The notes below the pieces were generated by a model. The model did not search any database and was not told where the DNA came from. It saw only the letters and a program-made list of their open reading frames with translations. Position numbers and translations under genes: made by a program. Shown one piece after another: positions 18,329-18,815 of a stretch of DNA of 64,000 nucleotides (position 1 is the stretch's first letter; each line of letters opens with the position of its first letter). The DNA is from Escherichia coli (lineage in GTDB: Bacteria > Pseudomonadota > Gammaproteobacteria > Enterobacterales > Enterobacteriaceae): the NCBI RefSeq assembly GCF_003790525.1, contig NZ_CP033635.1; one strand, 5' to 3'.

Positions 18329-18815
18329 CGTAATTTTATTACATCAGGCGACAACTACCTTGAAAAACGCCGGAAATAACTGACTCTTTACCCGCAGCCA
18401 TGCAGTGGGCTTTTTTATATCCCCCCTTCACAAACTCTGCTCACTGGTTATACCGGTTCACCTTTCCGGCTTGTAACCGCATGCACTCTGGACTGCCAGT
18501 CAGCTCATGTATGTCTCTTCCTTAATTGTGTTCATGAACAGGTGACACCTTATCTCCTGACAGAATAAACAAATTTTATTAATTCTGCTCTTCGCCAGCC
18601 CACTGCTACCATCTGTCGCGACGGGGCATGGCTGCCTGCATGGCATGCATTTGTTGTGTCTGTGCTGACTGAATACGATAAAAATTTCTGGTTAATGACG
18701 ATCGATATCATCGATCGATTCGATCGATTTTATTCGATTGAGGCTATCGCATGGCGGGTTTTAAAATGCACTGAGTACTGCTTGCAGCAACGGAGCAATA
18801 ACGGAGATAATTGAA

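Follow-up and report, generated by a model that had tools for sequence, protein, structure and literature searches.

A conserved cluster of three Dam sites upstream of a Tia/Hek/Hra-family adhesin gene of Escherichia coli: a candidate methylation-sensitive switch resembling Salmonella std

In the std operon of Salmonella, the upstream activating sequence carries three GATC sites at -242, -229 and -220, within 25–26 bp; Dam methylation prevents binding of HdfR, a LysR-type activator, at this site, the methylated state is OFF, and HdfR binding needs GATC-2 and GATC-3 (PMC6735912). In agn43, the OxyR site is located downstream of the transcription start, OxyR represses and the methylated state is ON (PMC2328253). 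The GATC-carrying OxyR half-sites of gtr each contain two GATCs 13 bp apart (GATC1/2 and GATC3/4) (PMC2909390), while the functional half-sites of opvAB score 7–10/10, the half-site OBS-D is centred at -43, and mutations that move a half-site towards the consensus lock the opvAB switch ON (PMC4856963). In this study, we analyzed a 64-kb stretch of E. coli DNA (64,000 nt of contig NZ_CP033635.1, hereafter the window), in which a tract with three Dam sites lies 76–118 bp upstream of the ATG (18816) of a gene for a putative outer membrane adhesin of the Tia/Hek/Hra family. The tract proved to be a conserved cis element that keeps a constant distance to a likewise conserved predicted promoter, and on balance we favour the view, drawn from its likeness to the systems above, that it is a Dam-sensitive switch, namely the operator of a LysR-type regulator, HdfR or OxyR.

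The tract (acGATCgatatcatcGATCgattcGATCgattttattcgattg, the window sequence at 18698–18740) contains GATC-I, GATC-II and GATC-III, which start at 18700, 18713 and 18722 and are thus spaced by 13 and 9 bp, and four ATCGAT palindromes, which start at 18701, 18710, 18714 and 18723. Tandem Repeats Finder reported the 9-nt unit TCGATCGAT at 18711–18729 in 2.1 copies with 100% matches, and the perfect 19-bp palindrome at 18710–18728 doubles as two tandem 9-nt units. An earlier sequence-only reading of this DNA had listed the three Dam sites, the palindromes and the tandem unit, and all of them were confirmed at these positions. Nowhere else in the window are three GATCs found within 30 bp, and the arrangement GATC-N9-GATC-N5-GATC occurred once against 0.01 expected from shuffles, the total number of GATCs in the window being ordinary (246 vs. 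242 expected). The triad is also isolated, with no other GATC between 17389 and 22147; the GATC-free gaps beside it measure 1,314 bp upstream, the third-largest in the window, and 3,425 bp downstream, the longest. A GATC-poor composition is general for genomic islands such as GI-selC (PMC4659465). The GATC triad itself is beyond chance expectation.

Family upstream regions were taken from complete E. coli genomes, with counts over 5,426 genomes, and the counts of single alleles, which derive from identity bands, are approximate. Conservation was expressed as the mean majority-base fraction among nine lineage representatives in a gap-free alignment, and 73 metagenomic loci were found with a pattern on the flanking block and the ribosome-binding site that did not require GATC. 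The element-bearing tia-type upstream region was present in 1,682 of the 5,426 genomes, the type strain ATCC 11775 among them with 100% identity to the L015 query, at 2,053 places and in up to four copies per genome, and the window-type upstream region in 184. The triad was intact in 68 of the 73 metagenomic loci, and it stands at -116/-103/-94 from the ATG, one nucleotide further in some alleles, despite flanks that can barely be aligned. The 28-nt core was the best-conserved upstream segment, with a conservation of 0.93 vs. 0.63–0.69 in the flanking spacers; the predicted -10 and -35 hexamers scored 0.85 and 0.81. In Salmonella enterica, the locus L209 of the homologue P0061 (52% identity, BLASTP) has GATCs at 2875, 2888 and 2897, again spaced by 13 and 9 bp. 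Among the matches listed for the 17-nt core TCGATCGATTCGATCGA in genome contigs, only high-G+C genomes appeared, in which the string is likely coding, and the viral contigs scanned for the core gave zero matches.

The geometry of the tract relative to the predicted promoter was fixed as well. The promoter scan gave TTGAGG-18-TAAAAT in the window (Table 1), and the Salmonella L209 locus has TTAACA-17-TAAAAT at 2913–2941; in both, the start of GATC-III precedes that of the predicted -35 by 16 nt, and 9 nt separate the end of the element from the predicted -35 in the window. This distance, and that of the tract to the start codon, are in line with the statement of the sequence-only reading that the tract lies in the likely promoter region of the adhesin gene. 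The -10 position reads TAAAAT or TAGAAT in every lineage, Salmonella included, and the -35 position reads TTTACC in tia-type alleles and TTAACA in Salmonella. We infer a transcription start near 18774 from this promoter, relative to which the element would extend from about -75 to -46, with the centre of the dyad at 18701–18715 near -66 and that of the 19-bp palindrome near -55.

Table 1. Coordinates of the tract, the predicted promoter and the neighbouring genes in the window.
Feature	Position	Strand	Basis or remark
Core element, three Dam sites in ATCGAT dyads	18700..18728	.	GATC starts 18700, 18713, 18722
Dyad ATCGAT-ATC-ATCGAT (ATCGATATCATCGAT)	18701..18715	.	Bracketed by GATC-I and GATC-II; candidate LysR-type dimer site
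Perfect 19-bp palindrome (9+1+9), ATCGATCGA-T-TCGATCGAT	18710..18728	.	GATC-II and GATC-III placed symmetrically
Predicted -35, TTGAGG	18738..18743	+	Promoter scan: TTGAGG-18-TAAAAT
Predicted -10, TAAAAT	18762..18767	+	Promoter scan; conservation 0.85
Conserved upstream block CGATAAAAA (CGATAAGAA in tia-type alleles)	18676..18684	+	Conservation 0.86 vs. 0.63 in neighbouring spacers
Shine-Dalgarno sequence, GGAG	18803..18806	+	Read from sequence
Tia/Hek/Hra-family outer membrane adhesin/invasin gene (putative), 246 aa	18816..19556	+	Open reading frame listing; homology
Terminator-like hairpin closing the adhesin transcription unit	19634..19658	+	Promoter/terminator scan
Phosphoethanolamine transferase gene, 500 aa	19738..21240	+	Downstream neighbour of the adhesin gene

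In geometry, the closest counterpart of the tract was the std element. Chessa et al. gave the motif acGATCa-(N6)-tcGATCgt-atcGATCta for std (PMC2328253), and we rebuilt the std element ACGATCATAATCATCGATCGTATCGATCTA from this printed motif, with the N6 taken from the reverse complement of a primer (PMC2328253) and not from the genome. The rebuilt std element and the window sequence ACGATCGATATCATCGATCGATTCGATCGA were identical at 24 of 30 positions and at 12 of the 18 positions outside the GATCs (P ~0.001); the commonest tia-type allele agreed with the rebuilt element at 8 of these 18. In both loci the GATCs stand at 0, +13 and +22, an identical spacing, and the window palindrome at 18710–18728 corresponds to GATC-2 and GATC-3 of std. 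Both elements, too, precede the promoter, a predicted one in the window, of a horizontally acquired adhesin locus. The std switch differs in requiring an operon-encoded StdE/StdF feedback loop, whereas the tia-type module comes without a regulator gene. The hdfR gene is present in E. coli K-12, and hdfR and oxyR both belong to the core genes of E. coli.

The same comparison bears on whether methylation matters at all. Within the core, conservation was 0.96 at the GATC positions and 0.91 at the others, and such conservation of the whole core would also be given by an ordinary operator bound by a dimeric transcription factor, in which the GATCs are incidental to the ATCGAT half-sites, are fully methylated and cause no switching; the perfect 19-bp palindrome and the persistence, with intact genes, of alleles that have lost one or all GATCs would fit this equally. 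However, the same 13/9 triad with similar flanks is a proven methylation-sensitive site at std, and agn43 and gtr, too, have a half-site within a pair of GATCs 13 bp apart. Moreover, the bases between GATC-II and GATC-III change while the GATCs stay: three of these five bases differ between Salmonella L209 and the window, and they read tatac in Salmonella, gtatc in std and gatat in a four-GATC allele described below. We regard an ordinary operator as rather unlikely, while giving it serious weight.

Conservation also decided on a reading of the palindrome as an intrinsic terminator or an insulator against read-through from the upstream insertion sequence (IS) remnant. The scan listed 18710–18728 plus TTTATTCGAT as terminator-like, and the RNA of the tract folded at -19.3 kcal/mol (z-score -2.65), but the T-run is missing in M505-type alleles (GAAAACATT) and in Salmonella (GATATTAAT), both of which keep the core, and the stems are short, with a G+C content of only one half. 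For want of a conserved T-run, this reading was rejected as hardly credible.

The second group of likenesses was with the OxyR switches. With the 37-bp OxyR consensus of Toledano, 18692–18728 scored 14/20, the top score in the window by consensus scoring only and level with the highest one of the agn43 regulatory region of K-12 (416–452 of L009). The GATCs of that region stand at 418, 437 and 450, and the second and third, 13 bp apart, flank ATCGTTTATATCGAT. The tract thus resembles agn43 in having three GATCs within an OxyR-consensus-like region (14/20 each), in a 13-bp GATC pair (GATC-II/III of agn43) around an 8/10 half-site, in the shared flanks acGATC, tcGATCg and tcGATCga, and in an adhesin as target, with Ag43 and Hek both promoting autoaggregation; unlike the 13 and 9 bp of the window, the agn43 spacing is 19 and 13 bp. 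Of the 10 positions specified by the OxyR half-site consensus ATAGnTnnnAnCTAT, the dyad at 18701–18715 matched 8, as did 18714–18728, and the half-site inside the 13-bp GATC pair scored 7–9/10 in every lineage that keeps the element, a range in keeping with that of the functional opvAB half-sites, the allele-variable positions of this 13-bp spacer coinciding with positions that are free in the OxyR consensus. A pair of half-sites spaced by 32 bp reached 15/20 in the window lineage and 12–14/20 in the other lineages, with all three GATCs in every register. As in gtr and opvAB, the regulatory region precedes the promoter, here a predicted one, and an OxyR-like half-site adjoins the -35; in those systems, in contrast, four GATCs extend over 80–125 bp, with half-sites ~32 bp apart in alternative occupancy, whereas all GATCs of the window lie within 29 bp.

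The pap switch consists of two GATCs ~102 bp apart in Lrp sites together with papI/papB-type regulators. The sequence-only reading had likened the tract to both pap and agn43, and of this comparison only the agn43 half held, as far as the 13-bp pair and the OxyR score go. The comparison with pap fails because no GATC is located within 1.3 kb upstream or 3.4 kb downstream of the triad, so that a second site ~102 bp away is lacking, and no papI/papB-like genes are nearby; what would be shared with pap is Dam-dependent control of an adhesin, which is a prediction here. The best Lrp consensus match, 12/15, was reached at 107 window positions, and the scores of CRP, FNR, PhoP, IHF and Lrp consensuses over the tract were unremarkable.

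A Fur match was more conspicuous. As in the Dam- and Fur-controlled sci1 type VI secretion promoter of enteroaggregative E. coli, a Fur-box-like sequence overlaps GATC-I in the window lineage: GTTAATGACGATCGATATC at 18691–18709 scored 14/19, and only 6 of ~128,000 window positions scored as high. In an element of the sci1 type, Fur bound over GATC-I would repress when iron is plentiful, and methylation would modulate Fur. Unlike in sci1, however, the match is limited to the window and L004 lineages, and it falls to 9–11/19 in tia-type and M505-type alleles, in Salmonella and in others with a conserved GATC core. The Fur box could be a lineage-specific addition and not the function of the conserved element, and as an account of that function it appears very improbable.

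The tract might also take part in the silencing of acquired DNA by H-NS, its TCGAT-rich motifs acting as high-affinity sites. The conserved block CGATAAAAA (Table 1), which starts 24 nt before GATC-I, was found in all E. coli lineages aligned and has a Salmonella counterpart 21 nt before GATC-I; it resembles the H-NS high-affinity motif TCGATAAATT. Both this block and TCGATCGATT match TCGATAAATT at 8/10, the locus belongs to the selC island and one GATC-less allele stands beside an H-NS-family pseudogene, all of which would suit an H-NS nucleation site or intrinsically curved DNA. Nevertheless, 8/10 was reached at 71 window positions, and the strict spacing of the GATCs across genera is left unexplained. 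As the sole explanation, H-NS nucleation or curvature is improbable, and it could coexist with a Dam-sensitive switch.

Considering these comparisons, we propose a plausible model for the Dam-sensitive switch. The regulator would bind the ATCGAT dyads only while the embedded GATCs are unmethylated, and from this site, which abuts the -35, it would activate the weak predicted promoter TTGAGG-18-TAAAAT. The bound regulator would shield the GATCs from Dam, and the ON state would be inherited; Dam methylation after replication would exclude the regulator and give an OFF lineage. The outcome would be a bistable, phase-variable adhesin expressed by part of the population. Activation rather than repression is suggested by position only, because the site is located upstream of the predicted -35, whereas the repressor site of agn43 is downstream of the start; the polarity would thus be opposite to that of agn43. 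HdfR and OxyR are not ranked as candidates: the identical spacing and the best sequence match speak for HdfR, and the consensus fit and the three precedents of agn43, gtr and opvAB speak for OxyR. Binding of a protein, the choice of regulator, activation as its effect, differential methylation and bistability are all things that we infer from sequence. The sequence-only reading had also suggested methylation-dependent control in the adhesin promoter, and this idea gained from the conserved position across alleles and Salmonella and from a geometry shared with proven switches, while the Dam dependence itself stays at the level of a prediction.

Several points weigh against such a switch, in which the promoter and every mechanistic step are predictions. 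First, the std triad is located 214–239 bp before the start codon and away from the promoter, whereas the window triad is 94–116 bp before it and abuts the predicted -35. Second, the hdfR-maoP intergenic region of K-12 contained no motif like the tract, so that a test for an HdfR autoregulatory site came out empty, and we know of no HdfR motif. Third, a distance of 13 bp separates the two best OxyR-like half-sites, while the canonical distance is 22 or ~32 bp, and the commonest allele, the tia-type, has a poor partner half-site beside the -35. Consensus scores of the OxyR or Fur type are weak evidence in any case, because ATCGAT repeats fit several AT-rich palindromic consensuses; a Fur box reaches 14/19 in the window lineage. 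Fourth, natural alleles can dispense with the triad. The C18725A allele, which turns GATC-III into GATA, accounted for 29 of the 109 genomes with a window-type core, and the G18713T allele, which turns GATC-II into TATC, for ~39 of the 109 in its identity band, the window's own three-GATC version falling in a band of at most 35. All three GATCs are lost in the L007 type and in L014, with the gene intact in both sampled alleles, and 75 genomes in the 60–80% identity band correspond to the GATC-less L007 type. Finally, 475 of the 5,426 genomes have the upstream region found in sequence type 131 (ST131), in which a ~98% identical coding sequence follows an unrelated upstream region that lacks the element.

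The junction of this promoter swap is located ~20 nt before the ATG (window 18796–19556 vs. L010 and L011, 1040–1220), homology between the two types starting only around the Shine-Dalgarno sequence, and the ST131 type has no GATC cluster. The GATC-less and swapped alleles show that the gene can do without the triad; frequent locking or replacement of switches would lead one to expect such alleles, and they fit a non-epigenetic operator equally well. The single-site alleles may also alter the strength of a half-site: G18713T creates CTAT and lifts the half-site to 9/10, and by analogy with the half-site mutations of opvAB the TATC allele might lock the switch, while C18725A creates ATAG in one register and loses a consensus C in another. 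At the -35 position of L014 (ETEC1749) stands TGTTTATCCTATCTTTT, which is PhoP-box-like, and the Salmonella relative pagN is PhoP-regulated; in the same strain an H-NS-family pseudogene adjoins the GATC-less allele (590–961 and 1100–1213). In some alleles (L005 at 1717, L013 at 1217, and L159), ATA replaces the ATG start and the remaining gene is apparently intact, L005 being annotated from a later start.

The sequence-only reading had further suggested that the tandem repeat might change by slipped-strand mispairing, and a comparison of copy number among strains spoke against it. If the number of TCGATCGAT units changed often, the geometry of the promoter would be altered, and the 2.1 tandem copies at 100% identity and the existence of one-unit and three-unit alleles would suit such a process. 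Two units are, however, far short of the lengths that slip often, and simple-sequence contingency loci are recognized by a long tract with a unit number that varies among close relatives. Two 9-nt units were found in 70 of the 73 metagenomic loci; the one-unit allele is rare: L214, which has an intact gene, was the one case in ~1,160 complete genomes, and a further case was the metagenome contig L168. The three-unit, four-GATC allele (L152, L179 and L213, the last being E. coli 1303 at 2501–2585), with a spacing of 13, 9 and 9 bp, was found in 34 complete genomes at at least 95% identity, and it is diverged and lineage-fixed; what follows it is no more than a frameshifted remnant, limited to the signal-peptide codons, of the outer membrane protein gene. 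The variants being rare or lineage-fixed, frequent slippage is scarcely probable. As the gene behind the four-GATC allele has decayed, this allele counts less as evidence for selection on the GATCs. The sources listed for it were cattle, pig, goat, raw beef and a diarrhoeal patient.

The adhesin-invasins Tia, Hek and Hra serve as virulence markers in enterotoxigenic, neonatal meningitis, uropathogenic, avian and enteroaggregative E. coli. The protein encoded downstream of the tract is 62% identical to a protein annotated as 'invasion outer membrane protein Tia', and its homologues carry Pfam PF13505 and PF02462; none of the NCBIfam models reached the cut-off on the 246-aa protein. Its gene and an ST131 hek/hra-type gene shared ~98% identity in coding DNA and 97% in protein. 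The name 'tia-like' given by the sequence-only reading thus pointed to the right family and missed the nearer relative: the window gene is, by homology, a member of the Tia/Hek/Hra family closer to hek/hra than to tia, and its role as an adhesin is putative. A 1.3-kb stretch identical to the window is present in E. coli TUM9803, in which the gene is annotated as 'outer membrane protein'; TUM9803 has an extra IS3 copy downstream that is missing from the window. Hek, which belongs to this family, promotes autoaggregation (PMC2553418).

Two features of the transcript were noted beside the promoter. In tia-type alleles (e.g., L008 at ~1600–1640, and L012), a short hairpin of the form CCCCG...CGGGG directly precedes the Shine-Dalgarno sequence in the predicted 5' untranslated region (UTR), and in the window-type the 5' UTR hairpin is CTGC-TT-GCAG (18776–18800); this hairpin could be a translational control element. 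Beyond the adhesin stop codon, two tandem 26-nt copies, GATAATTGCGTATATTCTGTAATTAA and GATAATTGCATATCTTCTGCAATTAA, which are 88% identical and each contain a short inverted repeat, occupy 19574–19625, ahead of the terminator-like hairpin.

The locus is located in the island beside tRNA-SeC (24538–24632, minus strand), i.e., the selC island, with PhoX, a truncated ABC permease and an IS3-type integrase remnant upstream. An integrase-core fragment (17957–18328) and a truncated, frameshifted iron ABC permease (~17596–18043) directly precede the adhesin module, and the two mark a recombination scar. The phosphoethanolamine transferase gene, which has a separate promoter-like site at 19673–19700, follows the tia/hek/hra-type gene in nearly all contexts examined (selC island, papG, dptF and others), and the two genes therefore travel as a module; papG is directly upstream of some tia alleles. 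The NCBIfam matches of the 500-aa transferase to CptA and EptA were all far under the cut-offs. The tract was considered as the end of a mobile element and ruled out, because no second copy, as an inverted or a direct repeat, flanks the module. No regulator gene accompanied the module across the genomic contexts examined. A LysR-family regulator gene is located ~5 kb upstream of the tract in the window (~12603–13532, plus strand, placed via L001 6254–7183), and it is unlikely to be the regulator that would bind the tract, because it is absent from the module in other genomes.

A search for literature on control of tia, hek or hra by Dam, OxyR, HdfR or H-NS, on their regulation in general and for a publication printing the core sequence, returned nothing relevant, most subscription journals being outside the search. 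The tia/hek/hra element is probably a newly noticed switch that depends on Dam and a LysR-type regulator, compact and unusually widespread; to our knowledge no std-type Dam element has been described elsewhere than in the std operon, so that this one, if true, would be the first. As a tentative extension, which we consider less likely than not, the 13/9 triad may be an operator that is methylation-sensitive and portable, serves a single core regulator of the LysR type, HdfR or OxyR, and is common to unrelated adhesin loci in two genera, namely std in Salmonella and Tia/Hek/Hra in E. coli and Salmonella. In that case, an epigenetic phase-variable adhesin would have gone unrecognised in about one third of E. 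coli strains, and the GATA, TATC, GATC-less and promoter-swapped alleles would be locked or retuned versions selected in lineages such as ST131.

If the tract is a Dam switch, expression of the adhesin would be heterogeneous and heritable, and the presence of the gene would not mean its expression, which would affect the reading of adhesion and invasion assays, the choice of vaccine antigens and virulence-gene typing. The finding could also help to define HdfR recognition. Furthermore, the alleles with three, two or no GATCs and with a replaced promoter would form a natural series for the study of how such switches are tuned or locked in evolution.

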